Shown here in pieces: positions 25,837 to 59,752 of a DNA stretch of 64,000 nt. Source of the stretch: Candidatus Kerfeldbacteria bacterium (GTDB lineage Bacteria; Patescibacteriota; Patescibacteriia; UBA9570; XYC2-FULL-38-9); the NCBI GenBank assembly GCA_018500015.2, contig JAHBAR020000020.1:29981-93980 (forward strand), given 5' to 3'. The position numbers were made by a program, and so were the translations under genes. Each line of letters begins with the position of its first letter. Position 1 is the first letter of the stretch. Below the pieces are notes generated by a model. It did not search any database and was not told where the DNA came from. It was given only the letters and a program-made list of their open reading frames with translations.

Positions 25837-27639
25837 TTAAGTCGCGATGACCCAACGATTTCGACCTTCTGAACCGGAGCGAGATGTCTGGTATCCGGGA
25901 ACGTGCGCAGGATCTTCGGTACCGGGAAAACCTTTCCCATAATTGAGGGCACGCGCAACACTTGTCTTTGCCTTATCAAATGGCATCACCTGATACATGG
26001 TACGCTGAGCAGTACCGCTGCCTACAATCTCCGGAGTTGGTGCAAGCACAATGCCAGCGATAGTCGCTGTAAAGGCCTCTCTATCAAACTGAACAGAAAG
26101 CCCTTGATCGGCACACATACGCATCACTACTTTCATCACCTCTTCTTCCACAACAGAACGCAAACGCTCAAGAACGTATGGAAAGTTATGCTGTTGATTT
26201 AATTCAACAAGAACAACAAACTCTTCACCGCCAATACGAGCTGCAAATTCGTTGCGACGTAAGAATTTTTTAAAGACACGACCAAACGCACGAAGTACTA
26301 AATCACCGACACTATGGCCGTGTGTATCATTAATGCGCTTAAAAAAATCTATATCCATGAGAATGAGTCCGTATGTATGCCCTTGGCGTTGCATTTCTGA
26401 CCACACACGCTTTTTCTCAATCTCCAAAGCAAGGGTGTTTGGAAGAAGTGTGAGCGCATCAATATGGGCAAATTGATCGATGTAAAAGATAGACCTCTCA
26501 ATAGCTTGAAAAGTATTTTTTTCAAAAAGCTCAGCCGGGGCAACGCGTTGAGCAAGACGCAACAACACACTACGCATTCCTTCGCGCGGATCACCGTGCA
26601 CTAAGACTGCGCTTTGTCCCTGCCTCTCATCTTGTCGCCGTGTATATTCAGCATAGATGTGTGGATCGTCTTGAGGTATAGATGGCAGATGCTGAAGAAG
26701 GGCCTGTATCGATATGTCATCTATTACCGGCCCCTGCGCACGTGTATCTCTGCGCTGTTGAGAAGCGACCTGCGGATTCATCTCCATACCATCTACAAAC
26801 CGCTCAACCGCATTACGACCATTTCTCTTTACCGAGTATAGCGCTGCATCAGCCTGATCAAACCACAGGATAGGATTTTTTTGATCAGCACGGCTTGCAA
26901 AACCTATGCTCACAGTGACAGGAACATTTCGGAGCTGTGTTTTCTCAATACCCTCAGGCATGCGCGCTAAAACACGGTCTGCAAGATTTCTTTGCACAAG
27001 CTCACGGAAATTTTCCAAAAGAAGAGAGGCATGCTCTGCGTTTGTATTTCGGAGTATCAAAGCAAACTCCTCTCCGCCATAACGATACATATCATCTGTA
27101 GCGCGCCGAAACACATGCTTCATCAATTTTACAACCTCCTGTAAAGCAATATCTCCTGCGGGTAAACCTCCTCGTGTATTTACCCGTTTAAAAAAATCAA
27201 TATCAACGATAGCGATCACCGTACCTTTATCTTCTACACGTTCATGTTTTTCACGGTCTAGCTGTGTCCACACGCGAGCAAGATCGCGATCAAACATGTT
27301 ACGATTCAATGCTTGGGTTAATGGATCAACGCCTGCCAGCTTTTCCAATTGCCCAATATATATAATTACTTCCCGTATCTCACTTGGTTCAAAGTAGTCA
27401 GCATATTCAACAATCAGCTGACGCATCAAAATTCCGGGCACCAGAGAAACATCTCGAGTATCATGCAACTGTTCACGCAATTCTACACAACGTACACGAA
27501 GATTCTCTACAAGATTCGCCTTTGTGGGCAGCTTTCTGTCTTCGCTTCTAGCGCGTACGCTATATCTCTCAGCAAGTACGGGAGGTCGTCCAAATCGTAA
27601 TGGCCGTTCTTTTTTTCTTTGAAGAATAACATTATCCAT
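25837..27639 (-). CDS. Tandem GGDEF-domain protein (putative diguanylate cyclase)
   Basis: Two GGDEF domains: RATDDMYRYGGEEFALIL (RxxD I-site 5 aa upstream) and RRNEFAARIGGEEFVVLV (no RxxD). I recognise no REC, PAS or EAL domain. Confidence 0.8.
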   Translation of the reverse strand: MDNVILQRKKERPLRFGRPPVLAERYSVRARSEDRKLPTKANLVENLRVRCVELREQLHDTRDVSLVPGILMRQLIVEYADYFEPSEIREVIIYIGQLEKLAGVDPLTQALNRNMFDRDLARVWTQLDREKHERVEDKGTVIAIVDIDFFKRVNTRGGLPAGDIALQEVVKLMKHVFRRATDDMYRYGGEEFALILRNTNAEHASLLLENFRELVQRNLADRVLARMPEGIEKTQLRNVPVTVSIGFASRADQKNPILWFDQADAALYSVKRNGRNAVERFVDGMEMNPQVASQQRRDTRAQGPVIDDISIQALLQHLPSIPQDDPHIYAEYTRRQDERQGQSAVLVHGDPREGMRSVLLRLAQRVAPAELFEKNTFQAIERSIFYIDQFAHIDALTLLPNTLALEIEKKRVWSEMQRQGHTYGLILMDIDFFKRINDTHGHSVGDLVLRAFGRVFKKFLRRNEFAARIGGEEFVVLVELNQQHNFPYVLERLRSVVEEEVMKVVMRMCADQGLSVQFDREAFTATIAGIVLAPTPEIVGSGTAQRTMYQVMPFDKAKTSVARALNYGKGFPGTEDPAHVPGYQTSRSGSEGRNRWVIAT

Positions 27640-41186: not shown

Positions 41187-41206
41187 CTTCCAATAGGAAG
41201 TTATTT
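41181..41206. terminator. Bidirectional hairpin terminator (copy 1 of a twin hairpin)
   Basis: AAATAACTTCC-AATA-GGAAGTTATTT flanked by A- and T-runs. Its arms contain the stop codons of both convergent genes. Confidence 0.6.
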
Positions 41207-42181
41207 TTTCAACAGCAACAAAATCAATCCAACAATTCGGTCTTTGTCTTGCGGATTACTTTCAGCAACAAAAACAGTAAGTGCCGTAAGTGCACTTGGC
41301 GTGATTGATTCTTTTTTGAGCATCTTTGCTTTATTCAAAAACCACACGAAGGCAAATGCACCCGAACGTTTATTGCCATCAACAAACGGATGATTTTTAA
41401 CGATGAAATATAACAAATGCGCTGCCTTTTCCTCGATAGACGCATACACATCCTTACCACCAAAACCTTGAAAAACATTTCCGACAATTCCAGAAAGAGC
41501 CTCGGAGGATCGTTCTTGAGCAAAGATTTCTGTTGCGGAACGTTCCTTGATTAACTGCGCTTTCATTTCAGCGATAGCGCGCGAAAGTTCATCAGCTGTG
41601 ATGCGGACATTTTTTTTCGTTGCGCCAGCGCGTGGCAACTCAGATCTATCGTACGCGTCCAAAGAAAGCCAAGTCGTGGAAAATAATTTCACAAGCTCGA
41701 GCACGCTTTGCGTATCCATTCTTCCCTCTTTTGGTAAAAGCTTTTGAACATCAGCAATAGCCTTTTCAAAAGATTTGTAATTACGAGCAATCTGCTTCGG
41801 GTTAATTGCAAATCCTTTTGTAATATAGGCATTCAATGTTTTGGTTGCCCACTTACGAAAATCAATAGCTCGAACAGAATTTACTCTGTATCCAACCGAA
41901 AGTATGACATCAAGATTATATCCTTGAACCATATATTCTTTTTTATCTTCGGCAGTATGTGCAAAAATTGCACATACTGAATGCGCGTCAAGTTCCTTGT
42001 CCTTAAAGATATTATTAATATGTTTTGTAACTACAGACCTTTCCACGTTAAACATTAAGGCAATCTGAGCCTGTGTAGCCCAAAAGGTATTTTTTTTAAT
42101 ATCCTTACGAAGTTCAATGGCTCCGTTTTTGCTTTGATAAATAGCTAACTGTTGTACCTCGTTTTTCTTTTTCATACACAA
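41201..42181 (-). CDS. RhuM-family N-terminal region fused to a Fic/Doc-type domain
   Basis: N-terminal AIYQSKNGAIELRKD...WATQAQIALMFNVERSVVTKHINNIF...GYNLDVILSVGYRVNS (RhuM-like). The C-terminal motif HPFVDGNKRSG matches HxFx(D/N)(A/G)NKR of Doc. Confidence 0.75.
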   Translation of the reverse strand: MCMKKKNEVQQLAIYQSKNGAIELRKDIKKNTFWATQAQIALMFNVERSVVTKHINNIFKDKELDAHSVCAIFAHTAEDKKEYMVQGYNLDVILSVGYRVNSVRAIDFRKWATKTLNAYITKGFAINPKQIARNYKSFEKAIADVQKLLPKEGRMDTQSVLELVKLFSTTWLSLDAYDRSELPRAGATKKNVRITADELSRAIAEMKAQLIKERSATEIFAQERSSEALSGIVGNVFQGFGGKDVYASIEEKAAHLLYFIVKNHPFVDGNKRSGAFAFVWFLNKAKMLKKESITPSALTALTVFVAESNPQDKDRIVGLILLLLKK

Positions 42182-44177: not shown

Positions 44178-46285
44178 GAAGCGGGCAGTTGTACACACTT
44201 TTCAACAGAGTCAACCGGCTCACCAATTGGAATATCAACAAAAAGATCAGGTGAAATAGAACGAATATCAGAACGCACATACCGACAACTTGCAAATACT
44301 TTTGAAGAGGTAATAAAACGTTTTTCACCTTGTGTAACAACAAATAATTTGCTATCACCCTCTTTTTGAATAAGGAAGCTTTGCTTAAAGCTATCTGGGA
44401 AGCCAGCTTTCTTGAGTCGTTTGTTTATCTGCCGACGCAACACTTCTTCAGAGATAAATTGCGCCGTCTTATTGCTCATATCAAACCGGTACACCTCAAG
44501 CCCTGTGGAAGAGAGCTCGTCAACTGGACGAGCGACACTCAGCACATACTCTTTCACGGCGGGCTTTGCACGCGACAACTCCTTTGGCCATACAATCCAT
44601 CCTGAATGCCGTCTAAACAACAACGCCTCCATCTTTGCCGGTGTCTCCAACACTTTTGGCTTATTGCGATGCATATCGATAATGGTGTGCGCGGTGTCTT
44701 CACCCCAATAAAAATTGCGAAACGAAACAACCAGCAACGATTCATCGTCGCTCATGTGTTCACGCACATACGCATACGCCGTTTTGTAATCGATCGACTG
44801 AACACTATCAGCCACCGCAGCGTTAAACACGCTTACAGAGGGCACACGTGGGATAGACACCGGGACGCATAACAGCGCAACAACACATGCCCACGCGACT
44901 GTCGGCTGCAAACGCTTCATGTTCAAGCCGCGCACCAGATCACGCGCAGTGATAACGACAAAAGGGATAATCAACAGACTCACGAGGGCAAAATATCGAC
45001 GAGCAGGAAAGGAGCTGAGTACAAAAATATAAATCAAGAACAGTGAGGCAGATGTGCTCCCCATAAAACGCATGGTCATGCTTTTGCGAAACATACATAG
45101 TAGACCGATGACATACAGCGCAATAGCTAAACCAAAAATCGGAAAATCAAAAAAACCATAGAGCTCGTAAATAGGATTACGATACGCAACATGAATCACG
45201 CGCCACGGAATGTAGCGGTAAAACTGATCAACAACAAGCATCCCAACACTCAAGAGCAGCGCAGCAATCATAGCCCATGTCATAGGTGCAACAGACGGCG
45301 AAAAAAAGCTCCGGTGTTTTGCGTATTGCACAATCCACTCAACAATAACAAAAAGGAGGAACCCCGGTATGAATACCAAACAAATAATTTGCAGGTGCAT
45401 TGAGGCAATATAGAACGGAATGGTCACAAGGCTCCAGAAAAAAAACTTTCCGTGCTGGCGAAGAGTGTATGCACGGAATGCCAGATACACACATACCAGC
45501 GTTACACCAAAAATTAAAAAAAACGGTTCATACATGCGCGTTAGCGCTCCGAGTTGAATAAAGGTGTTTGAAAAGACCAGTGTGAATGCAACAAGTGCGG
45601 CTGTCACCCTATCCTTCAACCACGCACGCATAACCAGATACATACCAATCACCAACAAGATGAATGAAACAATTGCCGGCAAACGCGCACTCAGCTCAGA
45701 AATACCAAAAAGATTCATTGATTGCGCAATAATCCACGTATATCCCCATGCCCGAGTGTATTCCCACACCTGTCCATTGGCGCCCACAAACGGTTTACTT
45801 GTTGAAAAATCATAGTGTACAAACTCGCCGGTTTTTATATACCCTACTGCACTTTCAAATTGAAAAATTTCATCACCATCAATCGACATTGACCCGGCGT
45901 ACCATACGCTCATAATAGCAACGGCGATCAAAGCAATAATAATCAATGCGTCTTTCCACACTCGAGCGTCGGGTTGTTTTTTTTCGACTAACACCGGATC
46001 CTGCCTCATGAGCACAACAGCGGCAAGACAGACAGCACCAAGAACAAGAGGAAGACGCACATCAGAAAGGGAGAAACCGTCGATTTGTCCAAAGTGGAAT
46101 ACCCGCCCAACAATAAGAATACCGAGCGCGCCAATCAACACTTCGCGTGCATATGAACGATGACGTATTTTTTGAAGCACCCACAGCAATACTCCTGCGA
46201 TGAGGGCATATACACACAACGAAAAAAATGGATCGCCAAAAATGAGTGGGTTAATGTTCAGAAAATCATGGAACCACGCAAACAT
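44174..46285 (-). CDS. Large polytopic membrane protein, putative GT-C fold glycosyltransferase (ArnT/PMT-like)
   Basis: 703 aa. A multi-TM N-terminal region of about 480 aa carries an acidic first-loop motif, IDGDEIFQFESAVGY. A soluble C-terminal domain of about 200 aa follows. Confidence 0.5.
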   Translation of the reverse strand: MFAWFHDFLNINPLIFGDPFFSLCVYALIAGVLLWVLQKIRHRSYAREVLIGALGILIVGRVFHFGQIDGFSLSDVRLPLVLGAVCLAAVVLMRQDPVLVEKKQPDARVWKDALIIIALIAVAIMSVWYAGSMSIDGDEIFQFESAVGYIKTGEFVHYDFSTSKPFVGANGQVWEYTRAWGYTWIIAQSMNLFGISELSARLPAIVSFILLVIGMYLVMRAWLKDRVTAALVAFTLVFSNTFIQLGALTRMYEPFFLIFGVTLVCVYLAFRAYTLRQHGKFFFWSLVTIPFYIASMHLQIICLVFIPGFLLFVIVEWIVQYAKHRSFFSPSVAPMTWAMIAALLLSVGMLVVDQFYRYIPWRVIHVAYRNPIYELYGFFDFPIFGLAIALYVIGLLCMFRKSMTMRFMGSTSASLFLIYIFVLSSFPARRYFALVSLLIIPFVVITARDLVRGLNMKRLQPTVAWACVVALLCVPVSIPRVPSVSVFNAAVADSVQSIDYKTAYAYVREHMSDDESLLVVSFRNFYWGEDTAHTIIDMHRNKPKVLETPAKMEALLFRRHSGWIVWPKELSRAKPAVKEYVLSVARPVDELSSTGLEVYRFDMSNKTAQFISEEVLRRQINKRLKKAGFPDSFKQSFLIQKEGDSKLFVVTQGEKRFITSSKVFASCRYVRSDIRSISPDLFVDIPIGEPVDSVEKCVQLPAS

Positions 46286-46352
46286 ACTGCTACAGTATAA
46301 AAGCGATTACCGCTCTAGGCAACCGCTTCGCATTCATGATAGGATGCGACAT

Positions 46353-46937
46353 ATGAAAAAATGCTTTTTCTCAATATTACCTGCGCTTTTAATAGTGTTC
46401 GTTCCTGTAACCGCTTCAGCGCATATTGTTGCCAGCAACGATTTAACCAGCGGCTTCACTCACCCACTCTTTGGAATTGACCACCTTCTTGCTATGGTCG
46501 CGGTTGGAGTGCTTAGCATGCTGCTTGGAATTGCACGCGTATGGCAGCTGCCAGCCATCTTTGTCGGCTTCATGATCCTTGGTGGCATCACAGGCATCAA
46601 CGCACTTCCAATCATTGGCGTTGAACAGAGCATTGCGCTGTCAGTGATCTTCTTTGGCTTACTCATTGCCCGCTCTCAACATATGCCGTACGTACTCGCA
46701 CTCTGCACAACTGCGCTGTTTGGCTTTATGCACGGCTATGCACACGGAGCTGAAATGCCGATTGTCGCACAGCCGGTATTTTTTTCATTTGGTTTTGTGC
46801 TTTCAACATTGCTGCTGCACATCAGTGGCGTGCTGATTGGTAAAATGAGCTTGCGTTCACAAATCACACACACCATTCTTCGATTGGGCGGCGGGGGCAT
46901 GACGATTGCAGGCATGCTTTTTCTTTTTGCTCTATAA
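46353..46937 (+). CDS. hupE: HupE/UreJ-family nickel (cobalt) permease
   Basis: Start at MKKCFFSILPALLIVFVPVTASAHI (signal peptide). Signature HPLFGIDHLLAMVAVG, 6 TM segments. Confidence 0.75.
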   Translation: MKKCFFSILPALLIVFVPVTASAHIVASNDLTSGFTHPLFGIDHLLAMVAVGVLSMLLGIARVWQLPAIFVGFMILGGITGINALPIIGVEQSIALSVIFFGLLIARSQHMPYVLALCTTALFGFMHGYAHGAEMPIVAQPVFFSFGFVLSTLLLHISGVLIGKMSLRSQITHTILRLGGGGMTIAGMLFLFAL

Positions 46938-46943
46938 AAAAGA

Positions 46944-47762
46944 ATGCAACACACTCAAGACAAGCTTATACAATTACAAGAAATGCTGCGCTCGATGGGC
47001 ACAGTACTTGTTGCCTTTTCTGGCGGTGTCGACAGCACACTGCTTGCCAAGGTTGCACACGATGTATTAGGTGACAAAGCAATTGCGATCATCGCGCAAT
47101 CTGAGACCTATACCAAATCTGAGATGACTGAAGCGCTCAACGTGGCCAAAATCATCGGCATTCACACCGAAACCATCCACACAGAAGAAGTGTCAGACCC
47201 ACGGTATAAAAAAAATCCGGTGAATCGCTGCTACTATTGCAAAAGCGAACTGTTCACCAAATTAAAAGCGTACGCGAAACAGCACAACTTCACATATATA
47301 GTCGAAGGCACAAACGCCTCGGACAAAGATGATTATCGCCCCGGCAAAAAAGCGATCATCGAAAGCGCCGTCAACAGTCCGCTCAAAGATGTTGGCCTTA
47401 ATAAAGATGAAATTCGCGAACTGCTGAAAGGCTATGGCATTCCAAACTGGAACAAACCATCCAATGCCTGCCTTGCTTCACGCTTCCCATATGCAACCGA
47501 AATCACTCCAGAAAAATTAGCGACGGTTGAAAAAGCAGAAATTTTCATCAAACAATTTGGCATTGATCAACTTCGCGTTCGCTATCATGATAAAGTTGCG
47601 CGCATTGAAGTGCCAGAGGAATATATGGACACAATTCTTGCACACAGAAAAGAAATTTTCGATCACTTTAAACACCTCGGCTTCGCGTACACCGCGCTTG
47701 ATCTCAAAGGGTATCGCACCGGCTCACTCAATGAAACAATTGTATGGAAAAAGAAAGAATAA
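46944..47762 (+). CDS. larE: LarE, PP-loop ATP-dependent sulfur transferase of nickel-pincer cofactor synthesis
   Basis: PP-loop VAFSGGVDSTLLA, CYYCK (Cys96, Cys99) and SNACLASRFPY (Cys176). Confidence 0.85.
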   Translation: MQHTQDKLIQLQEMLRSMGTVLVAFSGGVDSTLLAKVAHDVLGDKAIAIIAQSETYTKSEMTEALNVAKIIGIHTETIHTEEVSDPRYKKNPVNRCYYCKSELFTKLKAYAKQHNFTYIVEGTNASDKDDYRPGKKAIIESAVNSPLKDVGLNKDEIRELLKGYGIPNWNKPSNACLASRFPYATEITPEKLATVEKAEIFIKQFGIDQLRVRYHDKVARIEVPEEYMDTILAHRKEIFDHFKHLGFAYTALDLKGYRTGSLNETIVWKKKE

Positions 47763-48493
47763 TCGAAACACTCAACAACTACAAAGAGAAAAAAATTAAT
47801 TTGAACGAAGCACTCAATGAGCTGCGTGATCTTCCATTTGAAAATCTCGACTTTGCAAAAATAGATCATCATCGCACACTGCGCAACGGATACCCGGAGG
47901 TGATTTATTGCAAAGGCAAAACCATTCCGCAAATTGTCGCCATCTTCGCCCACCTTCGTGAAAAGTCTTCAAACATCATGCTCACTAAAGCATCGCGCGA
48001 GGTCTACGAAGCGTTGAAAGTGATCGACAAAAAAGTGGAATTCAACGAACTTGCTGGATGCATTGCGCTCAAACGTCGCAAAAATAAAAAGAAAGGCACT
48101 ATCCTCATTGTTGCTGCTGGCACTGCCGACCTCCCTGTTGCCGAAGAAGCAAAGTTTACCGCTGAGTTCATGGGAGTCACTGTCGACACTGTGTATGACG
48201 TTGGTGTTGCGGGACTTCCGCGCTTGCTCGCATCAAAAGAAAAAATCTTCAGCGCAAAATGCATTATCGCAATTGCCGGCATGGACGGTGCGTGCGTGCC
48301 AACAACCGCAGGCCTCGCAAAATGTCCAATCATTGGAGTGCCCACATCCACAGGCTATGGTGCAAATCTCGACGGACTCGCCCCACTCCTCACCATGCTC
48401 AACTCCTGCGCGCCGGGTGTCTCGGTGATGAATATCGACAACGGATTTGGGGCAGGATACTTGGCCGCTATCATAGTCCAACAATCTAAATAA
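47744..48493 (+). CDS. larB: LarB, NaAD carboxylase/hydrolase of nickel-pincer cofactor synthesis
   Basis: DFAKIDHHRTLRNGYPEVIYCKGKTIPQI, followed by the PurE-like VAAGTADLPVAEEA...AIAGMDGA. It overlaps larE by 19 nt. Confidence 0.85.
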   Translation: MEKERIIETLNNYKEKKINLNEALNELRDLPFENLDFAKIDHHRTLRNGYPEVIYCKGKTIPQIVAIFAHLREKSSNIMLTKASREVYEALKVIDKKVEFNELAGCIALKRRKNKKKGTILIVAAGTADLPVAEEAKFTAEFMGVTVDTVYDVGVAGLPRLLASKEKIFSAKCIIAIAGMDGACVPTTAGLAKCPIIGVPTSTGYGANLDGLAPLLTMLNSCAPGVSVMNIDNGFGAGYLAAIIVQQSK

Positions 48494-48635
48494 ACACATA
48501 AATGGCACACTGCTTGTCGTTCGCTTTCGCGCTACTCGACGTACCAGAAAGTACGCCTCGGTCGCGCTCAAGCTTCACGACTTCGCATTGCGCTCATTTC
48601 TGAGTTTATTCCTCAAGTATGATAAAATATTGTGT

Positions 48636-49841
48636 ATGAAAAGATTATTGATCGACGCACGCTCAGGAATTTCTGGCGATATGTTCTCCGGTGCTTTGTT
48701 AGGTTTGCTCGATGACGATGCGTTTGTTATTCGTGAGCTCAAAAAACTCAAGCTCAACGAATTCAAAATTGAAACGCGCTGGGTCGAAAAAAAAGGTGTA
48801 CGTGCAAAAAAATTTGATGTGATTCTCTATGATCATCATCACGACGATCATGGACACGAACAGGGACATAACCACTCTCATTCACATGTGCACAATCGCA
48901 ATCTCAGCGACATCACACATATCATAGATGGCAGCATGCTTTCTCCTGCTGTGAAAAATTTGAGCAAAAAAATATTTTTAACGCTTGGAAAAGCAGAAGC
49001 GAAAGCGCACGCTGTCCCACTCAATGAAGTGCACTTTCATGAAGTTGGTGCTATTGATTCAATAGTCGACATTGTAAGCGCTGCTATTCTCATTACTAAG
49101 CTCGGTATCACTGAATATGCTGTTGCCAACCTCACCGAAGGCACGGGTGCAGTGCATATTGACCACGGTGAAGTTACGCTTCCTGTTCCTGCTGTGCGTG
49201 AACTGCTCAAAAACGTACCACTTTCACGTGTACGCGTTGCCAAAGAACTCATCACACCAACTGGCGCTGCAATTCTTAAAACCATGAAGATGAAGTTTGT
49301 TGACTCAGTTGATATGGAAGGGACGAAAATTTCCTACGGTGCTGGTACACGCGATCTCGATTTTCCAAACGTGCTCAAAGTGGCAATTGCGGCCGACACA
49401 CACCACGATCGCAAAATGTTGATCGAGACACACATCGACGACATGACTCCTGAGATGATTCCACACATCGTCGATGCACTTCTCACGCGCGGCGCTATCG
49501 ACGCATTTGCTCAACCACTCGTGATGAAAAAAAATCGCGTTGGCGTTTTACTTTCTGTGCTCTGTGAAGCAGCGCGCGTTGACTCTCTCGTAGAAGCGAT
49601 CTTCGAAGAGACATCGACATTCGGTATGCGCGTGCGACCAATCGATCGCGTGATTCTCAAACGCACAATGAAAAATCTTAAAACGCCTTATGGTTCGGTT
49701 CCAATAAAAATTGGCAGCTACAATGGCAAGCGCATGAATGCAAAGGCAGAATCAGATGTAGCGGCAAAAATTGCGAAAGACAAACACATTCCATTAAAAG
49801 AAGTCTACGCTGCAATCAATTCAGCGCTCAATCGAGATTGA
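48636..49841 (+). CDS. larC: LarC, nickel-inserting cyclometallase
   Basis: Start at MKRLLIDARSGISGDMFSGALLGL. His-rich HHHDDHGHEQGHNHSHSHVH. It is a single uninterrupted ORF. Confidence 0.85.
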   Translation: MKRLLIDARSGISGDMFSGALLGLLDDDAFVIRELKKLKLNEFKIETRWVEKKGVRAKKFDVILYDHHHDDHGHEQGHNHSHSHVHNRNLSDITHIIDGSMLSPAVKNLSKKIFLTLGKAEAKAHAVPLNEVHFHEVGAIDSIVDIVSAAILITKLGITEYAVANLTEGTGAVHIDHGEVTLPVPAVRELLKNVPLSRVRVAKELITPTGAAILKTMKMKFVDSVDMEGTKISYGAGTRDLDFPNVLKVAIAADTHHDRKMLIETHIDDMTPEMIPHIVDALLTRGAIDAFAQPLVMKKNRVGVLLSVLCEAARVDSLVEAIFEETSTFGMRVRPIDRVILKRTMKNLKTPYGSVPIKIGSYNGKRMNAKAESDVAAKIAKDKHIPLKEVYAAINSALNRD

Positions 49842-49894
49842 TTATTCGCGGTATTTCTTGTATACTCGTGAGCAGCTTTTTGCTCTATTTTTGT

Positions 49895-51241
49895 ATGCTC
49901 AACTGGCGCAAACCTATCATTTACCTCTTTTTTTGGAAAGATACTCACATCTTGCGATATTTGCGTGAACTCACACCAATTCAATTTTGGCCGCGCAATG
50001 AAATCAAAAAATTGCAGAACGAAAAATTGCAGATGCTTTTACAGCATGCTTACGATCACGTGCCGTATTATCACGATCTGTTTGAAAAATTAGGCATCGT
50101 TGCTGACGGGAAAGTTGATGCGTCACAATTTTCCAAAATTCCACCACTCACCAAAGATGTTATTCGCGAGCAAAAAGAGCGCTTATATGCCGACGATAAA
50201 GAAACACGCGACTTTTATAAAAACACATCTGGCGGCTCAACCGGCGTGCCAGTAGAGTTTGTGCAAGATTCCACGTATCGCGACATGTCGTGGGCGAATA
50301 AAATTATGTACAACCGCATGGTCGGCAAAGACGATGGCATGCGCGAAGTCAAACTCTGGGGCTCTGAACGCGATATTTTTCAAGGTTCAGAAAGTTTCCG
50401 CGCGCGCTTACAACACTTTTTGTACAACCGCATGTTGCTCAACAGCTTCCGCATGTCGGAAAGCAAAATGGGTGAATATGTCGAACGCATTAACACATTC
50501 AAACCAGTGCTGCTCTGGTCATACATCGACTCTGCATACGAACTTGCACGCTATATAAAAACACATAACCTCAAGGTCCACGCCCCAAAAGCCATCTTAG
50601 TGACAGCCGGCACAGTGTATCCAGAAATCAAAGAGTACATTTCCAAAGCATTCAACGCGCCGGTCTACAACCAATATGGCTCACGCGAAGCTGGCGACAT
50701 GGCATGCGAATGCCCAGAGCGGAACGGGCTACATGTATTTGAATATCTGTATGTTTTTGAAATTCTTGATGAAAAATTACAATCGGTTGCACCCGGTGTT
50801 ATTGGTGATATTTACGTTACGTTGCTCATGAATTCTTCAATGCCTCTTATTCGCTATCGTATTGGCGACACTGCGTCATGGAAAGAAGATGCTGCGTGTG
50901 GATGTGGACGCAATTTGCCACGCATAAACGATGTGCATGGTCGCATCACTGATCACTTCCGCAGAGCCGATGGCACTGTTATTCACGGTGAATACTTCAC
51001 TCACCTCTTTTATTTCCGTCCGTGGATCAAAAAATTCCAGGTTATTCAAAATGATCACACACACGTCACTTGTTTGATCGTCAAAAACAGCCAAGAAAAT
51101 CATGCTGACGTGGGCGACATTGCGGACAAAATCAAACTCGTGATGGGCAATGAATGCGAAGTCACTTTTCAATATGTTGATGACATCGCGCCCAGTGGAT
51201 CGGGTAAATACTTGTACACAAAAAGCTTGATTGCTGCGTAA
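49895..51241 (+). CDS. Adenylate-forming ligase of the PaaK/CapK/F390-synthetase family
   Basis: NTSGGSTGVPVEF (AMP-binding core), plus YNQYGSREAG and RYRIGD. Start taken at MLNWRK; the tracked TTG start is less likely. Confidence 0.7.
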   Translation: MLNWRKPIIYLFFWKDTHILRYLRELTPIQFWPRNEIKKLQNEKLQMLLQHAYDHVPYYHDLFEKLGIVADGKVDASQFSKIPPLTKDVIREQKERLYADDKETRDFYKNTSGGSTGVPVEFVQDSTYRDMSWANKIMYNRMVGKDDGMREVKLWGSERDIFQGSESFRARLQHFLYNRMLLNSFRMSESKMGEYVERINTFKPVLLWSYIDSAYELARYIKTHNLKVHAPKAILVTAGTVYPEIKEYISKAFNAPVYNQYGSREAGDMACECPERNGLHVFEYLYVFEILDEKLQSVAPGVIGDIYVTLLMNSSMPLIRYRIGDTASWKEDAACGCGRNLPRINDVHGRITDHFRRADGTVIHGEYFTHLFYFRPWIKKFQVIQNDHTHVTCLIVKNSQENHADVGDIADKIKLVMGNECEVTFQYVDDIAPSGSGKYLYTKSLIAA

Positions 51242-51246
51242 AAAGT

Positions 51247-52590
51247 ATGTCTCTGTCCTCTGTCTTTAACTCCGAACGAATCGAAAGCGGTCTTCAAAAA
51301 ATACTTCTTATAGGGTATTCAAAAATTCTAAAAAAAGAACCGAGCGAAAAAATCAAAAACTTTTTCACCAACTTTGGGTATCTTGCACTCGCTGAATTAA
51401 TCGGTAGCGTCATCGGCTTTCCAATTAAAATTCTTGTTGGGCGCTTTTTGGGCCCTGAGGAGTATGGTAAATACGCCCTCATTCTCAACCTTACTCAATT
51501 TTTTATCATTCCAATGCTTTTGGGATTTTCGACCGCAGTACTTCAATACCTTCCTTCACACCCCGAAAAAAAATCCCGCATTATGACAATTGTGTTTGCT
51601 TGTACTATTGTCACCACCGGTTTTTTTACTCTCTTCTTTTTATTGACACCACATATTTGGACAAGCCTATTTAATGTTTCGCGAGACATTTTTATATGGA
51701 CTATTGCGTATAGCATTATCTATGTTTTTTATTATGTACTTGAAGCATTTCAACGCGGATCACATCGCTTCTTTCTTCTCTTTTGGATTACCATTCTCAA
51801 CTCTTCAGTGTTGCTTATCACATTTTTAATTTTCTTATTTGGCTTTCATCAAGAAACATATCAAACCTTTATCACCGCTAACATTGTTGCCTTTGCCTCT
51901 TCGTGCGTAGTCTTTCTGTACTTTTTTTTCTTCAAGGACAAGCCTGACTACACGCCTGATGCGCAACTGACAAAAAAAATACTCAGCTACTCGGGGTTGG
52001 CAACACTCGGCGGCATTACAGGGTTCATTATAGGTAATACAGATCGTCTATTTTTGAATCATTACGCCTCGCTGTACTGGGTTGGTGTATATGCTGCATA
52101 CACAAATGCAAGCACATTTCTGATTGGCAGATTTTTTCAACTCTTTTTAAATGTATATTTTCCTACTGTTGCTAAAGAAAAAGATAAGAGTGCTGTTATA
52201 CACTCTGTACAACGCATGTATCGATTTGCAGTTATTCCAATTTTTATTGTTTCCGTTCTTTCCATTTGGGGTGTCATGTTACTATTTGGCAACGCCTTTC
52301 CTATTTTACCGCATTTCATTTTGCTTTTTTCATTTAACAACTGCTTGATGGTGCTCTATCAACTACAGATGTGGCTCTTCAACGCTCAAGGAAACCGCGG
52401 TATGAAGACAACGTCGCGGATACTCATCTTCAATGCTGTGTTGAATATTATTCTCTACTTTTTCCTCATTCAGTGGTGGGGCGTGGTTGGTGCCTTGTTC
52501 TCTGCAACAATCACCTACACTATTTTTATTCTCTACTATCGTAATCGAGTGCGTCATTTTATTGCTCGTGGATATTTTAACGAAGCCTAA
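51247..52590 (+). CDS. Oligosaccharide flippase (Wzx/MOP family)
   Basis: 447 aa with about 12 TM segments. The N-terminus FGYLALAELIGSVIGFPIKILVGRFLGPEEYGKYA is typical of Polysacc_synt. Confidence 0.65.
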   Translation: MSLSSVFNSERIESGLQKILLIGYSKILKKEPSEKIKNFFTNFGYLALAELIGSVIGFPIKILVGRFLGPEEYGKYALILNLTQFFIIPMLLGFSTAVLQYLPSHPEKKSRIMTIVFACTIVTTGFFTLFFLLTPHIWTSLFNVSRDIFIWTIAYSIIYVFYYVLEAFQRGSHRFFLLFWITILNSSVLLITFLIFLFGFHQETYQTFITANIVAFASSCVVFLYFFFFKDKPDYTPDAQLTKKILSYSGLATLGGITGFIIGNTDRLFLNHYASLYWVGVYAAYTNASTFLIGRFFQLFLNVYFPTVAKEKDKSAVIHSVQRMYRFAVIPIFIVSVLSIWGVMLLFGNAFPILPHFILLFSFNNCLMVLYQLQMWLFNAQGNRGMKTTSRILIFNAVLNIILYFFLIQWWGVVGALFSATITYTIFILYYRNRVRHFIARGYFNEA

Positions 52591-52597
52591 AAAATGT

Positions 52598-53725
52598 ATG
52601 AAGATCTGTATCATCAGCTTAGGAAGTTATCCGCTCTTTAATCCCACATGCACACGCACATTCGGTGGATCTGAAGTGCAATTGTTTGTACTTGCACAAG
52701 AGTTGGCAAAAAATCCTAACATCGATCTCCATTTTATTGTTGGCGATTTTGGACAAGAAAAAGTTGAAAAGTACGGACGCATCACTGTCTACAAAGGCAT
52801 CCCAGTCAAACGACACTCAAAAGTCGCTCGCTTTTTACCACGAAGCAAAGTGCTGCTCTTTAACTTGATGCGCAAAATTCAAGCTGATATATATATTCAA
52901 CGCTCTGCGAGCGCTGGCACAGGGCTCATTGCCCTCCTCGCTCACTTTTGGCGCAAAAAATTTGTGTACATGACTGCGCATGAAATAGATTGCAACGGTG
53001 GATTTGAACAACAAAATAGCTGGCTCGCGGGCAAACTTTTTCAATTCGGCATTCGTAGTGCAGACTTAGTAGTAACTCAATCACAAGAGCATGCGCAGAT
53101 GATCACAGCGCACCATCGTCGCAGTAGTATTGTCATTCCATCGCTCTATGCAATTGCGCCTGAGAGTGCGTTTGAACATATAGAAAAAACATACACGCTT
53201 TGGGTTGGTCGTTGCGAAGATTGGAAACGTCCGGAAATTTTTATTGAACTTGCACACCGCCATCCTGAACAAGAGTTTGTAATGATCTCGCCTGAGTCAA
53301 ACAATCAAAGTGACTACTACATTGAAATCAAAAAACAACTTGAACACGCACCAAAAAATTTGCGCCACGTCACCTATGTTCCGTTTGCAGAAATCGACGA
53401 ATACTTCAAACACGCAAAGCTTTTTATCAACACCTCTTCATACGAGGGCTTCCCAAATACATTTGTGCAAGCCATGAAAAACCAAACGCCAATTCTTTCC
53501 CTTGTCGTCAATCCAGACCAGATGCTTGAACATGCAGGCTGTGGCGCTTCCGCACACAATGACACCGAGCAATTCTACGCTCTTGCAAAAAAATACCTGA
53601 GCACTCCTGCTCTTCTATCTAAATGTGGACAAGCTGGCTATCGCTATGCAAAAGAAATACATGATAGTCACAAAATTACACAGCAATACACAGAGCTATT
53701 TGAAGATTTGATACAAAAACGTTAG
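52598..53725 (+). CDS. Glycosyltransferase family 4
   Basis: Start at MKICIISLGSYPL...GGSEVQ. C-terminal SSYEGFPNTFVQAMKNQTPILS. Confidence 0.75.
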   Translation: MKICIISLGSYPLFNPTCTRTFGGSEVQLFVLAQELAKNPNIDLHFIVGDFGQEKVEKYGRITVYKGIPVKRHSKVARFLPRSKVLLFNLMRKIQADIYIQRSASAGTGLIALLAHFWRKKFVYMTAHEIDCNGGFEQQNSWLAGKLFQFGIRSADLVVTQSQEHAQMITAHHRRSSIVIPSLYAIAPESAFEHIEKTYTLWVGRCEDWKRPEIFIELAHRHPEQEFVMISPESNNQSDYYIEIKKQLEHAPKNLRHVTYVPFAEIDEYFKHAKLFINTSSYEGFPNTFVQAMKNQTPILSLVVNPDQMLEHAGCGASAHNDTEQFYALAKKYLSTPALLSKCGQAGYRYAKEIHDSHKITQQYTELFEDLIQKR

Positions 53726-53736
53726 GATATGCTGAT

Positions 53737-55374
53737 ATGAATGAACAACGCGTTGCGGTCATTGAACAAAATACACCAGCATATCCAAAAGCACCTTTTT
53801 CTCCTGCTAAAATCTTTCCTGAACTTAACTCTCCAGCGCTTACATTTTTAAAAAACGAGACACTTGATGAAAGTAATGAAGTATATACATCAGTGCGTGA
53901 GCTTTTTATTAAGCTTGAAATGGACAAAGAGCATATTGGCACACCTGACTGGGAACCATTTCGCGAAATGATCAAGCCAGGTCAACACGCTGTACTCAAA
54001 GCAAATTTTGTTAAAGGTAATCATCCGCTCAATGAAGTAGGCATCACAAGCATGATCACTCACGCTTCGGTGATGCGCGCAGTCATCGATTACCTCCTAC
54101 TTTCAACAAATGGCAATTGTAAAATCACCATTTGCGATGTCGCCCTTCAAAGTTCTGTATGGGAAGAAATTATTGAAGGCTCAGGCACCAAGGCGCTTGT
54201 GGAATTCTATGCACAACACGGCATTCAGATTAACCTACTTGATCTGCGTCGTGAAATTTCACACCTCAATGATCAATTCGTTATCGACAGTCGCGATTTT
54301 GCTGATCGTGATCCATTAGGATACGCAGCAGTTGATCTTGGCAAGCAAAGCGCACTCATGCCAATCATACACAAGTACAAGCGCTTCATGATCACTGATT
54401 ATGGTCGAGGCACAGTTCCAGAACATCATAATCCAGAAAAAAATGAATACTGCATCGCCAAAACAATTTTAAGCGCAGATTTATTTATCAATTTGCCAAA
54501 ACTGAAAAGTCACCGCAAAACAGGTCTCACTTGTGCGCTCAAGAATCTTATCGGCATGAACGGCGACAAACGTTGGATTGCTCACCACACCGAACGCTCA
54601 AAAGGTTTGGGCGGCGATGAATTCCCCAAGTACGTGCTCCGGAACTGGTTTGAATTTCGGCTGTTCAGTTTCCTCAAACGCAACGGCAAGATGGGTATTT
54701 GGGCCGCTTCTCAAATTCGCAAAAACCATACACGCGCATACAAAATCAAAAACCAACTATTTGGACTGTTTGGTATTGACCGTACAAAAAAAGGTACGTC
54801 AACTCAAACGAATACTGCCGCATGTGAAACATATGTACCTCCAGAACGCATCTACCACATCTCGTACGATGCATTTCTAAAAACCTTTCCCGGCAGCTCC
54901 CGCGAAGTATTTCAAGAACTCAACCCTGTAGCTTCACGCCCAATGGAAGGGAGTTGGTATGGCAACGACACTCTGTGGCGCACAGTTTCTGACTTAAATC
55001 ACATCATCTTCTTTGCAGACAAAAACGGAGAGCTCCGTGAAACTGTGCAACGCAACTATTTCTGCATTGTTGATGGCATTATTGGAGGAGAAAAAGAGGC
55101 TCCAATGGAGCATACGCCAAAATTTACCGCAACACTTGTTGGCGGCACTCACCCTCTTGCCATTGACTTTGGTTGCGCGCGCATCATGGATTTTGATTAC
55201 AACAAAATTCCCATGATTAAAAATTTATTTGAACAAAAAGTAAATTTTTCACACCTCACTCCTGATCAGATTGAGTTGGTATCAAATAGATCTGAGCTCC
55301 CACATTTTCATTTCCGTCCTGCGCGCAACTGGAAAGGACACATTGAGACCGATCCACGCTGGTGGGCTGACTAA
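53737..55374 (+). CDS. DUF362-domain protein (long form, 545 aa)
   Basis: HAVLKANFVKGNHP, SMITHASVMRAV and LPKLKSHRKTGLTCALKNLIGMNG resemble the DUF362 family pattern as I remember it. It is the last gene of the lar-containing operon. Confidence 0.6.
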   Translation: MNEQRVAVIEQNTPAYPKAPFSPAKIFPELNSPALTFLKNETLDESNEVYTSVRELFIKLEMDKEHIGTPDWEPFREMIKPGQHAVLKANFVKGNHPLNEVGITSMITHASVMRAVIDYLLLSTNGNCKITICDVALQSSVWEEIIEGSGTKALVEFYAQHGIQINLLDLRREISHLNDQFVIDSRDFADRDPLGYAAVDLGKQSALMPIIHKYKRFMITDYGRGTVPEHHNPEKNEYCIAKTILSADLFINLPKLKSHRKTGLTCALKNLIGMNGDKRWIAHHTERSKGLGGDEFPKYVLRNWFEFRLFSFLKRNGKMGIWAASQIRKNHTRAYKIKNQLFGLFGIDRTKKGTSTQTNTAACETYVPPERIYHISYDAFLKTFPGSSREVFQELNPVASRPMEGSWYGNDTLWRTVSDLNHIIFFADKNGELRETVQRNYFCIVDGIIGGEKEAPMEHTPKFTATLVGGTHPLAIDFGCARIMDFDYNKIPMIKNLFEQKVNFSHLTPDQIELVSNRSELPHFHFRPARNWKGHIETDPRWWAD

Positions 55375-57572
55375 TTTTTCTTGTACAGCTTTATTGCATC
55401 TTCACCTTTTGTAAGCGTGAGCGTATTGATGTCCAATACTGAGTATGTTGCTGTGATACTTATAACATCAGAAAAAGAAATTTTTGCGCCGTCTTGTGCA
55501 GTATAACTGAATTGATATGCGAGTTGTTGTGCACTATCCGTCCGCGGAGGGACAAACAATACAACAGTATTGAGAGGGGTTTTTTGTTTATCTGATAAAC
55601 GAATTGTGGGATGAAGAACAACAAATACGCCCTTGGTATTTTGCATGAGCGAGCGTATATTCATCTCACCTGTTATCTCGTGATCGTTATCAACAAACAC
55701 CTTTGTGCTACGCAACCATGCGAGATTATCTATCACACTCCCTCCATCAAAATTGTTAAACTTATCATCATTAAGATGTTGTTTTCCTCGAACAGGTATA
55801 AGATTCCATTCATAGAGCATGAGATTGTCAACACTACGCTCAGGTTCAAGCGTCCACGCCTCATTAACAAATTCACGCACAACGCAGTCAGGCATTTCGG
55901 GCAATGTGCAATCCCATCTTTTTTGACGATACTCATCAGCCAAAAACCATGCGTGCGGATATGTACTTAAATCTGTAAAAAAAGATGTAGCCACCTCTTT
56001 TCTATCTTTTAAATTTCCATCCTCATCTTGCATGTATACAGCGTGAATGTTATCAGAAGTATTCTGCATAACATTCCAGATGCCTACATTATAAGAAAAC
56101 AGTCCATCATCTGGTTGTACAGTGATTGTTCGCAAGGCTTCGGCGTATGGATAATACAACTCATAAATTTGATCTTCACCTGAGCTTTGAGCATGCAGTA
56201 ATTCACGAAGATGCCCATATGGAATACACGCTAAGGTAAACATACTGCACCACACAAAAAAAACTGTGTGCGGCTTCATACGAGAAAATAGGCGTTGAGT
56301 TACAGTTGTCGCAATACGTGCATACACCCACACACCAATTGCGAAACATACTGTAATCAAAGGCAATACATGGTATCCATAACGAGGGCTAAAATAACGA
56401 TCAAAAAACCACAATTCAATAGCCGAAAACGCTGCCACGCCAACAACATATGCATATCGCGATGAAGAAAAAGCATAGACACACGCAACTGCAATAGCAA
56501 GCCCAATACCATAAAAAAATGCGGGCTGAGGAAGTTGATTGGTCAAAAATTGATAATACCCGCGCTCTTCAACGATCAATGCCTGAATATCAATATTGAA
56601 GGTAAATGCGTTGCGCAGTTGTCCAAGAAGATGAGGCATGCTCACAAGCACTACACAGCTCACACATACAAAAAGTAAAAAGAGAATAACAGAAGGGTCT
56701 CGAAGCGCTAGAGACGCATGTCCTTGACGCAGATTTTTGATACAGATATACACAACACGAACTAACAGCATGCCGCCTAAAATGGGTACATAGCCGAGAG
56801 TAAGCGAATGTACGGATACGGATAGCGAAAAAATGGCGATGCACGCGGCGCAAGCAGCCAGATAGGCCCTAACACGGAAACGCTCTGAGTAGATTGGTGG
56901 GGATGAAAATAGACGATATACAGCAAAAAGCAAGACCACGATCAATAGTTGCAACAGGTCATACATCCGGACATAGTGCGACATGATGATCGACCATGGA
57001 GAAAGGGCCAAAAAAAGGGCGACCATAAGCGCAATGCTCTGAGAAAAATATTTTTTAACAATCCATGTACACACAAAAAGCGTAACAATATTGATGCATA
57101 GATTCATCACCATACCTACTGTTGTGCTTTGCCCAAATATTCCTTGAGAAATAGCAAGCAACGCTGTGTACACAATTCCACGAGAGTATTCAGGGAAGCT
57201 GCCATGAAGCATCTGTTGTGCAGCTAAAAAATGATAAAAAGAATCAACAGGAAGCACTCCAATCGGCAACACCCATACACGTATACTCACAGCAAGTACA
57301 ACAATACTTGCAAACACTGCATAGAAAAAAAGTGAGGGTGTTTTTTTGGTGAGCTGGGGGGCTGAAGTATTTCGAAGTGCAACGTAACCCAAAATAACGC
57401 CCGCGCCGCCAAATATCATTGGCACATATGCAGGGAGGATAAAAGACGCATATGAGAATACGAGCGCAGCAATGCCGACCAACACTACACCAATGCGCGC
57501 CAGTGTGGACACAAAAGAAGCAGAACGAACGTTATCAGTGCGATGTATCATGCAATTGTATTTTAGACTCAA
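55371..57572 (-). CDS. Large polytopic membrane protein, putative GT-C fold glycosyltransferase
   Basis: 733 aa with about 14 TM segments. First-loop motif LPVDSFYHFLAAQ. A soluble C-terminal domain of about 250 aa follows. The start may be MIHRTDN at 57551. Confidence 0.45.
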   Translation of the reverse strand: MSLKYNCMIHRTDNVRSASFVSTLARIGVVLVGIAALVFSYASFILPAYVPMIFGGAGVILGYVALRNTSAPQLTKKTPSLFFYAVFASIVVLAVSIRVWVLPIGVLPVDSFYHFLAAQQMLHGSFPEYSRGIVYTALLAISQGIFGQSTTVGMVMNLCINIVTLFVCTWIVKKYFSQSIALMVALFLALSPWSIIMSHYVRMYDLLQLLIVVLLFAVYRLFSSPPIYSERFRVRAYLAACAACIAIFSLSVSVHSLTLGYVPILGGMLLVRVVYICIKNLRQGHASLALRDPSVILFLLFVCVSCVVLVSMPHLLGQLRNAFTFNIDIQALIVEERGYYQFLTNQLPQPAFFYGIGLAIAVACVYAFSSSRYAYVVGVAAFSAIELWFFDRYFSPRYGYHVLPLITVCFAIGVWVYARIATTVTQRLFSRMKPHTVFFVWCSMFTLACIPYGHLRELLHAQSSGEDQIYELYYPYAEALRTITVQPDDGLFSYNVGIWNVMQNTSDNIHAVYMQDEDGNLKDRKEVATSFFTDLSTYPHAWFLADEYRQKRWDCTLPEMPDCVVREFVNEAWTLEPERSVDNLMLYEWNLIPVRGKQHLNDDKFNNFDGGSVIDNLAWLRSTKVFVDNDHEITGEMNIRSLMQNTKGVFVVLHPTIRLSDKQKTPLNTVVLFVPPRTDSAQQLAYQFSYTAQDGAKISFSDVISITATYSVLDINTLTLTKGEDAIKLYKKN

Positions 57573-58801: not shown

Positions 58802-59752
58802 ATGCGCATTCTTGTCACCGGCGTCGCCGGATTTATTGGATCTCACCTCACGGACCGCCTACTCGAGCTTGGACACGAGGTTATTGGTATTGATAATTTC
58901 AACGACTACTACAACCCTCTCTATAAAGAAGAGAATATCGCGACGGCTCTCAAACATCCAAAATTCACACTCCATCGCGTTGACATCTGCGACCAAGCAG
59001 AGGTTGAACGGATTGTTCAAACACAACACATCGATACTGTTATTCATTTAGCGGCGCAAGCAGGGGTTCGTATTTCCATTCAACAACCGATGCGTGCATA
59101 CAAAAATAACGTCGAAGGAACACTCGTCGTGTTCGAAGCGGCACGCAAAGCTGGCATTCACGACATCATCTACGCATCATCTTCATCTGTGTACGGCAAT
59201 CAACCTACTGCTCCATTCTCAGAAACCCTGAATGTCGACAACCCAATCTCCCCATACGCTGCAACCAAAAAAGCAAATGAGCTGTTGGCCCACACGTATC
59301 ATCATCTCTACAAAATGAATATGACTGGTTTGCGCTTTTTTACGGTGTATGGAGAGCGTGGTCGACCAGATATGTCGCCATACCTGTTTGCTGATGCGAT
59401 TGTACACGACCGTCCAATTGCGAAGTTCGGTGATGGTACAAGCTTGCGTGATTTTACCTATGTTGCCGACATTGTCTCGGGTATTGTTGCGTGTATGCAA
59501 AAAAATCTTGGCTATCAAATTTTCAACCTTGGAAACTCACAGCCGATTACTCTCAATGCATACATCGCAACCTTTGAGCGTGTCACTGCAAAAAAAGCAC
59601 TCATCGATCAAAAGCCCATGCAGCCGGGCGATGTATTCATGACTGCCGCAGACACAGCTAAAGCACAATCAATGCTCGGGTGGCACCCAACGACCTCACT
59701 TGAGCAAGGCCTTACACGATTCATTCAATGGTTTAAGATACACCGTCTATGA
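58802..59752 (+). CDS. NAD-dependent UDP-glucuronate 4-epimerase-like SDR (CapI/LpsL-type)
   Basis: MRILVTGVAGFIGSHL...IDNFNDYYNP...SSSSVYG...YAATKKANELLAHTYHHLY...GLRFFTVYGERGRPDM. Confidence 0.75.
   Translation: MRILVTGVAGFIGSHLTDRLLELGHEVIGIDNFNDYYNPLYKEENIATALKHPKFTLHRVDICDQAEVERIVQTQHIDTVIHLAAQAGVRISIQQPMRAYKNNVEGTLVVFEAARKAGIHDIIYASSSSVYGNQPTAPFSETLNVDNPISPYAATKKANELLAHTYHHLYKMNMTGLRFFTVYGERGRPDMSPYLFADAIVHDRPIAKFGDGTSLRDFTYVADIVSGIVACMQKNLGYQIFNLGNSQPITLNAYIATFERVTAKKALIDQKPMQPGDVFMTAADTAKAQSMLGWHPTTSLEQGLTRFIQWFKIHRL

Follow-up and report, generated by a model that had tools for sequence, protein, structure and literature searches.

The window analysed here, a 64,000-nucleotide stretch of a Candidatus Kerfeldbacteria contig (JAHBAR020000020.1, positions 29,981 to 93,980), is rich in glycosylation genes. 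It contains an uninterrupted plus-strand open reading frame (ORF) at positions 53737-55374 for a protein of 545 amino acids (aa), which scores 84.1 bits (E=1.8e-23) with the Pfam family DUF362 (PF04015), where the gathering threshold is 24. The gene is the last of eight on the same strand, which encode, in this order, a HupE/UreJ permease, LarE, LarB, LarC, a CapK-like ligase, a Wzx flippase, a glycosyltransferase of family 4 (GT4) and the DUF362 protein, with gaps of at most about 140 nucleotides (nt) and several overlaps (Table 1). The initial annotation had noted a LarA-like His/Lys/His motif in the DUF362 protein, and had proposed that it is a distant LarA-like fold that binds the nickel-pincer nucleotide (NPN), which would explain why it ends the lar operon in a locus without LarA. 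Taken as a whole, this interpretation is partly supported by the analysis presented below.

The DUF362 gene does close the same-strand block, but three glycan genes separate it from larC, so that to call it the end of the lar operon is loose wording. We infer that the eight genes are co-transcribed; scans for consensus promoters and terminators between 45.8 and 55.8 kb returned no more than chance. The permease gene, which was absent from the initial annotation, lies 6 nt upstream of larE. Judging from its sequence, the true start of the permease is likely Met52 (around nt 46353), which would leave a divergent intergenic region of about 67 nt, and the likely ATG starts of the LarC and GT4 genes are found around nt 48636 and 52598, respectively. 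LarC scores above cutoff for both NCBIfam LarC1 (185 bits) and LarC2 (137 bits), and homologues of the CapK-like ligase bear the Pfam domain CapK_C (PF27533). With respect to LarA, the description of the locus was correct for the window: tblastn detected no LarA homologue in the 64 kb, and Pfam scans of about 50 window ORFs detected no member of the LarA, aldo-keto reductase (AKR, PF00248) or ornithine-cyclodeaminase families.

Table 1. Genes of the nickel, cofactor and glycan block, and the conserved motif region of the DUF362 protein (positions in the window).
Feature	Position	Strand	Basis
Long-form DUF362 protein, 545 aa, distant LarA-like fold, candidate NPN-binding glycan-tailoring enzyme	53737..55374	+	Pfam, AlphaFold2, Foldseek
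Conserved block K255-L-K257-S-H259 ... G263-x-T265 ... K269-N270 ... G273 ... K278 ... H283-H284	54499..54591	+	Aligned to LarA H174 ... G178-x-S180 ... K184 ... G189 ... H200
HupE/UreJ-family nickel permease, first of block	46200..46937	+	Pfam HupE_UreJ PF04955, E=4.9e-46; signal-like N-terminus
LarE, sulfur insertase of nickel-pincer cofactor synthesis	46944..47762	+	TIGR00268, 334 bits vs cutoff 150; ACLASR cysteine motif
LarB, carboxylase/hydrolase of NPN synthesis	47744..48493	+	NCBIfam NF033503, 268 bits vs cutoff 175
LarC, nickel-inserting cyclometallase, full length, His-rich stretch	48588..49841	+	Pfam Ni_insertion, E=1.7e-124
CapK/PaaK-like adenylate-forming ligase	49838..51241	+	Sub-threshold NCBIfam matches to PaaK, F390-synthetase and DVU_1553 ligases
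Wzx-type polysaccharide flippase	51247..52590	+	Pfam Polysacc_synt, E=4.8e-24
GT4 glycosyltransferase	52487..53725	+	Pfam Glycos_transf_1, Glyco_transf_4

The residues that recall LarA are located in the peptide KLKSHRKTGLTCALKNLIGMNGDKRWIAHHT (residues 255-285, nt 54499-54591). A re-checked translation agrees with the numbering and spacing that the initial annotation gave for His259 (codon 54511-54513), Lys269 (54541-54543), His283 (54583-54585) and His284 (54586-54588). The segment had been quoted with the right residues but with a start at nt 54511, which is the His259 codon. The LarA side of the comparison is also accurate, since in Lactobacillus plantarum LarA, matched to PDB entry 5HUQ, His174, Lys184 and His200 (numbering of the PDB and the literature) have the spacing that was given for them. 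Within a single sequence, the motif is no more than what chance would provide. The DUF362 protein has a second H-x9-K at residue 523, and in 20,000 composition-preserving shuffles of its sequence H-x9-K occurs on average 1.4 times per shuffle, while the full H-x9-K-x13-15-H pattern is present in 13.7% of the shuffles. The motif is meaningful because it is conserved across homologues, and not because of the pattern in one sequence. In an alignment of 131 homologues that reaches down to about 30% identity, His259, Lys269 and His283 are each found in 131/131 sequences, and His284 in 118/131, the others having Tyr, Phe or Leu at this position. A set of 51 close homologues shows no variation at any of the four residues. 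Further conserved positions in the 131 sequences are Gly263 (128/131), Thr/Ser265, Asn270 and Gly273. Lys88-Pro-Asn90 is invariant, and position 138 is Gln in 86/131.

The fold relation between DUF362 and LarA is real but remote, and it is on record already rather than new: DUF362 and DUF2088/Lar_N are in the same Pfam clan (CL0471), and DUF362 is the outgroup of the LarA tree (PMC11770544). The distant LarA-like fold suggested for the protein of the window is borne out by an AlphaFold2 (AF2) model and a Foldseek search of the PDB, as had been recommended. The model has a mean predicted local distance difference test (pLDDT) score of 91.3. In the search, LarA-family chains take ranks 1-12 and 18 of the top 21 places, with Foldseek probabilities of 0.66-0.99 (0.96-0.99 for ranks 1-12), against values of at most 0.18 for the non-LarA chains within the top 21. 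According to the model, the fold is of the LarA type, with remote similarity, and differs from LarA by some 75 additional residues at the N-terminus and by a helical insertion at 296-400 that is about 100 residues long. The motif is predicted to be embedded in the order short helix, strand, His, Gly loop, Lys, short helix, His. The secondary-structure order of the motif surroundings and of the preceding beta-alpha-beta core is identical in the AF2 models of the DUF362 protein and LarA; the pLDDT of the LarA model is below 50 exactly over residues 172-186, so that this agreement supports only the order of the flanking elements.

Sequence families point in the same direction. The genuine LarA proteins P0125 and P0127 from Loigolactobacillus match Pfam DUF362 over residues 82-245 at 26 bits, with a gathering score of 24, which means that the Pfam DUF362 and LarA families overlap at their edges. 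Reciprocally, residues 230-279 of the subfamily member P0116, which comprise the motif region, weakly match positions 144-194 of Lar_N (PF09861; E=0.044, with 13.4 bits where the cutoff is 23.3). The DUF362 protein of the window itself does not match Lar_N even at E<=10, none of three subfamily proteins scanned matches LarA_C (PF21113), and searches of the PDB sequences with phmmer and with the family profile returned no LarA. When a LarA hidden Markov model (HMM) was run against 120 subfamily proteins, about 84 domain alignments covered LarA HMM positions 140-200, and all those inspected were in one register, which equates H174 with H259, G178 with G263, S180 with T265, K184 with K269, G189 with G273 and H200 with H284, with one residue deleted. 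The reverse HMM search gave the same register.

In this register, Lys269 would be the equivalent of the NPN-tethering Lys184 in both HMM directions, at weak alignment scores, and His259 the equivalent of the catalytic His174. The nickel ligand His200 would have its counterpart in His284 by alignment, next to His283, which is the invariant one. The position of the second catalytic histidine of LarA, His108, appears to be taken by Gln138 in a low-confidence hhalign alignment, which also places the end of the LarA SDxTRP strand near Lys88-Pro-Asn90, where there is no Asp (probability 0.25 in this region). The residues that are conserved across LarA homologues are the Lys, the nickel-binding His, one catalytic His and an Asp (PMC12611868). 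The set that seems to be retained in the DUF362 protein, namely Lys269, His283/284 and His259 together with the Gly-x-Ser/Thr loop, resembles this core as regards the Lys, the nickel-binding His and the one catalytic His, and the ribose-binding Asp is not clearly kept.

In view of the shuffling result, it might be argued that the His/Lys/His pattern is a chance likeness in an unrelated protein, and the profile-profile comparison by hhalign, which was not significant, could be cited to the same effect. However, chance accounts poorly for residues that are invariant in 131 homologues (118 for His284), for a PDB search in which LarA is the only well-supported fold match, for reciprocal Pfam cross-matches over the motif region, for an identical register in both HMM directions that also matches the intervening Gly and Ser/Thr, and for the published clan assignment (PMC11770544). 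Coincidence is thus highly improbable, and we regard it as effectively refuted.

The wider context of the gene was examined in 169 homologue loci, 80 from genomes, 80 from metagenomes and 9 from exact-protein look-ups. The long-form subfamily to which the protein belongs has 735 cluster representatives at E<=1e-30, with lengths of 480-550 aa, in many bacterial and archaeal phyla, and was matched in at least 584 GTDB species. A CapK-like ligase homologue occurs in 119/164 loci; among the 80 loci from genomes, its gene is mostly on the same strand within 250 nt, either upstream or downstream. The genes for the CapK/PaaK-like ligase and the long-form DUF362 protein make up a module of two that is strongly conserved in bacteria and archaea. 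An alternative partner is a TupA-type ATP-grasp protein; seven loci encode it nearby, four of these directly upstream, and in the locus L068 it is fused to DUF362. Other DUF362 fusions involve GT4, TOD1-like glycosyltransferase and PGA_cap domains (P0282, P0382, P0289, P0326, P0332, P0385). As its constant partner is a carboxylate-amine ligase, the subfamily belongs to surface-glycan or capsule tailoring, where it works together with this ligase. A tblastn search against plasmids returned no homologue.

Apart from the window, lar genes occur near long-form DUF362 genes in three loci. In L082 (56% identity), the order is LarC, LarE, CapK, methyltransferase, Wzx, GT4, DUF362. In L169 from Doudnabacteria (46% identity), LarC and LarE are divergent from DUF362 and directly abut it. 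In the distant L068 (32% identity), LarB, LarC, LarE and a His-rich membrane protein are followed by the ATP-grasp-DUF362 fusion, with genes that overlap or nearly do so. DUF362 is the sole non-generic gene common to all four lar-linked loci, and since the gene orders differ among them, the linkage was established or retained repeatedly. By a rough estimate, chance adjacency to lar genes would be expected in well below one locus in 169.

Two details of L068 deserve mention. Its LarC gene (6243-7469) has an in-frame TAA at 7077-7079, within the conserved region, which divides it into two ORFs of one frame, a LarC1-like and a LarC2-like one. The arrangement recalls the split larC1/larC2 of L. 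plantarum, and may reflect readthrough, two polypeptides or an assembly error. The His-rich membrane protein between LarE and the fusion (8281-8943, 220 aa, HRWQHRHGLAHQHH) has an H-x5-DH motif near its N-terminus and no Pfam match. By analogy with the HupE/UreJ permease of the window it is possibly a nickel transporter; a search with the HupE protein as the query found no homologue in the other loci.

On this basis, the reading that we favour, with a probability of roughly 45%, is that the DUF362 protein is a glycan-tailoring enzyme of the LarA clan, which obtains nickel and NPN through the genes upstream of it and holds the cofactor via Lys269 and His283/284. In this scheme, nickel would be imported by the permease, LarB, LarE and LarC would build NPN, and Lys269/His283 of the DUF362 protein would receive the cofactor. 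Hydride-transfer chemistry could then take place on a sugar-acid or hydroxy-acid moiety of the glycan, with a transient oxidation that leads to epimerisation or redox isomerisation. The ligase would amidate or acylate that moiety, either before or after the DUF362 step. What the data show is the homology, the conservation, the gene order and the glycan context, and the binding of NPN, the type of reaction and the substrate are inferred.

A number of findings weigh against this reading. The Foldseek TM-scores are just 0.17-0.28, with E-values of 3e-4 to 7e-3 over ranks 1-12. The scores of the LarA HMM against the 120 subfamily proteins are weak and individually insignificant, the best E being 0.029 in 120 sequences. 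The hhalign comparison of the family with a LarA alignment, which had been suggested as a check, gave a probability of only 0.25-0.33 with narrow and broadened profiles and did not place motif on motif; the LarA alignment that was used is shallow, as the homologue search gave only relatives of at least 77% identity. Equivalents of LarA Asp72 (ribose), Arg75 (phosphate) and His108 are not evidently conserved, with Lys88/Asn90 and Gln138 found roughly in their places, and His284, which is the residue aligned to LarA His200, is substituted in 13/131 sequences. As to gene context, lar genes are found within 10 kb in only 3 of the 169 other loci, LarB was not seen at L082 or L169, and the close relatives from the Candidate Phyla Radiation (CPR) in L001, L002, L083, L084, L165 and L167 have no lar genes within this distance. 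The constant partner of the subfamily is the CapK-like ligase, and not Lar. Finally, a comparison of lar-linked and unlinked homologues had been proposed to gauge the motif. The His and Lys residues are indeed kept, but they are equally invariant with or without lar genes nearby, so that the comparison does not discriminate, and a motif that is kept in loci without lar genes could serve another chemistry.

Many of these points are readily accommodated if the protein tailors glycans and has an ancestor in common with LarA but makes no use of NPN, a serious contender to which we give somewhat less than an even chance. The Lys and His residues would then bind another ligand or metal, or act as acid/base catalysts, and the lar genes would either supply an NPN-dependent enzyme whose gene lies outside the 64 kb of the genome that are in view, or be adjacent by chance. 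The 166 of 169 other loci without a lar gene within 10 kb, the partnership with the CapK-like ligase, the indifference of the motif to lar linkage, the unclear fate of Asp72, Arg75 and His108 and the insignificant hhalign result all speak for it. It is harder to reconcile with four lar-linked loci in three or four gene orders, among them the distant L068 with LarBCE overlapping onto the ATP-grasp-DUF362 fusion, when chance adjacency would be expected in well under one. It also leaves aside that the block of the window begins with a nickel permease gene, and that the residues kept appear to be exactly the cofactor-holding set of LarA.

Alternatively, NPN could be used by another protein of the cluster, such as the short-chain dehydrogenase/reductase (SDR) epimerase encoded at 58802-59752 or the CapK-like ligase, with DUF362 just co-resident. 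There is a precedent in 'NAD(P)-dependent oxidoreductases' that are encoded beside larBCE and turned out to bind NPN (PMC13524815), and an SDR epimerase gene is found near the lar genes both in the window and in L068 (3522-4466). However, the SDR carries the canonical NAD motifs GxxGxxG and YxxxK, as read from its sequence, such epimerases are generic in glycan clusters with or without lar genes, and in the window two opposite-strand genes separate the SDR from the block. CapK-like enzymes form adenylates and are not known to require a hydride cofactor, and L068 has no CapK homologue. DUF362 alone is homologous to a known NPN enzyme, and we consider another NPN user in the cluster unlikely.

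The remainder of the window and of the homologue loci provides further observations. Nearly all genes in the region 1-46285 are on the minus strand, before the switch to the plus-strand lar-glycan block. This region also has a RhuM/Fic gene (41201-42181), a gene for a GGDEF protein (25837-27639), a gene for a DUF4012 protein and at least 8 glycosyltransferase genes. Downstream, a minus-strand gene for a polytopic membrane protein of 733 aa, without family assignment, converges on the DUF362 gene (55371-57572), and its homologues occupy the same position in six related loci (e.g. L001, L002). The protein may be a glycosyltransferase of the GT-C type, as similar-sized L081 neighbours have weak PMT/PMT_2 matches. 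By sequence reading, the SDR epimerases encoded near lar-DUF362 (on the plus strand in the window) are sugar-nucleotide epimerases of the UDP-glucuronate 4-epimerase type, and genes for UDP-glucose/N-acetylmannosamine (ManNAc) dehydrogenases are found in L083, L084 and L169. Together, epimerase and dehydrogenase genes hint at uronic acids in the glycans. In L165 (5697-6627) and L166 (5013-5943), a small protein that resembles the S-component of energy-coupling factor (ECF) transporters (weak match) and a phosphoribosyltransferase are encoded directly upstream of the CapK-like gene, within the glycan cluster of a close CPR relative and without lar genes nearby.

Which proteins other than LarA use NPN is under active study. 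Such enzymes are now known, with only two non-LarA users reported in 2025-2026, and hundreds of genomes carry larBCE without LarA (PMC13524815). The locus described here offers a concrete candidate from a very widespread DUF family, which appears to retain the cofactor-holding residues of LarA and is physically linked to NPN synthesis genes in four loci. In the searchable literature, in which subscription journals are not covered, we found no function or cofactor assigned to any DUF362 protein, and no proposal of DUF362 as an NPN enzyme or of lar genes in CPR glycan operons. Apparent mentions of DUF362 in PMC12423673 are in fact mentions of DUF3623.

If the proposed role of NPN is correct, NPN chemistry extends into the tailoring of cell-surface glycans, a large family gains a cofactor, and even minimal CPR genomes would invest in an organometallic cofactor. 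It is conceivable, if on balance doubtful, that the long-form DUF362 proteins make up a second extensive group of enzymes with a nickel-pincer cofactor (NPN or NPAD), and the first in polysaccharide or capsule biosynthesis, alongside carboxylate-amine ligases, in bacteria and archaea including the CPR. Hundreds to thousands of proteins of 'unknown function' would then be organometallic nickel enzymes, and part of the puzzle of larBCE without LarA would be explained. If the proposal is wrong, the family is still a well-defined and unexplored partner of glycan ligases of the CapK/TupA type.

Among known systems, the superfamily of LarA and LarA homologues (Lar_N PF09861 and LarA_C PF21113; PDB 5HUQ, 2YJG, 9EIA, 6D6Z) provides the closest solved fold and shares the clan CL0471 with DUF362. 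Common to both are the block of strand, His-Gly-x-Ser/Thr loop, Lys and His, and gene neighbours for LarB, LarC, LarE and a nickel transporter. In contrast to LarA, the DUF362 protein is below the Lar_N and LarA_C thresholds, has the N-terminal extension and the helical insertion, lacks clear equivalents of Asp72, Arg75 and His108, and is found in the context of polysaccharide assembly with a ligase partner instead of 2-hydroxy-acid catabolism. Compared with Pfam DUF362 at large, it is a clear member, but one of a distinct long-form subfamily with a fixed glycan context.

With respect to its active site, the DUF362 protein may be compared with LarA Sp and LarA Bw (PDB 9Q2U, 9Q3J, 9Q3K), LarA homologues with a single catalytic His that bind NPN, as shown for one of them (PMC12611868). 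Both have been proposed to act in carbohydrate metabolism, and both are among the Foldseek matches. Like them, the DUF362 protein seems to have the Lys, the nickel-binding His and only one catalytic His. The choice of this residue differs: in LarA Sp and LarA Bw the His174 position is Asn and His108 is kept, whereas in the DUF362 protein His174 is kept and the His108 position is apparently Gln. Moreover, both of these homologues are bona fide DUF2088 members, unlike the DUF362 protein.

For the partner ligase, an experimental precedent is VpsH from the tailoring of Vibrio polysaccharide (VPS) in V. cholerae, where VpsH (CapK-like) amidates a uronic acid of a lipid-linked intermediate with glycine, and is encoded with VpsI (GT4) and VpsJ, a proposed C5 epimerase (PMC13463779). 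The vps order of CapK-like ligase, GT4 and uncharacterised enzyme mirrors the order CapK-(Wzx)-GT4-DUF362 of the window. This parallel is a lead only, as other fold matches have been reported for VpsJ (PMC13463779), and no Vibrio protein was among the homologues listed in a search with a gammaproteobacterial member of the subfamily.

Finally, the way in which the DUF362 protein came into view recalls NphT, an NPN-dependent AKR that was discovered when LarC neighbourhoods were mined (PMC13524815). NphT, which has a TIM barrel and no relation to LarA, is biochemically proven, whereas the DUF362 protein, which has no match to the AKR family (PF00248), is LarA-related and a candidate. What the two have in common is that both are non-LarA proteins singled out by larBCE adjacency in LarA-less loci, and that both have a conserved His/Lys pair.

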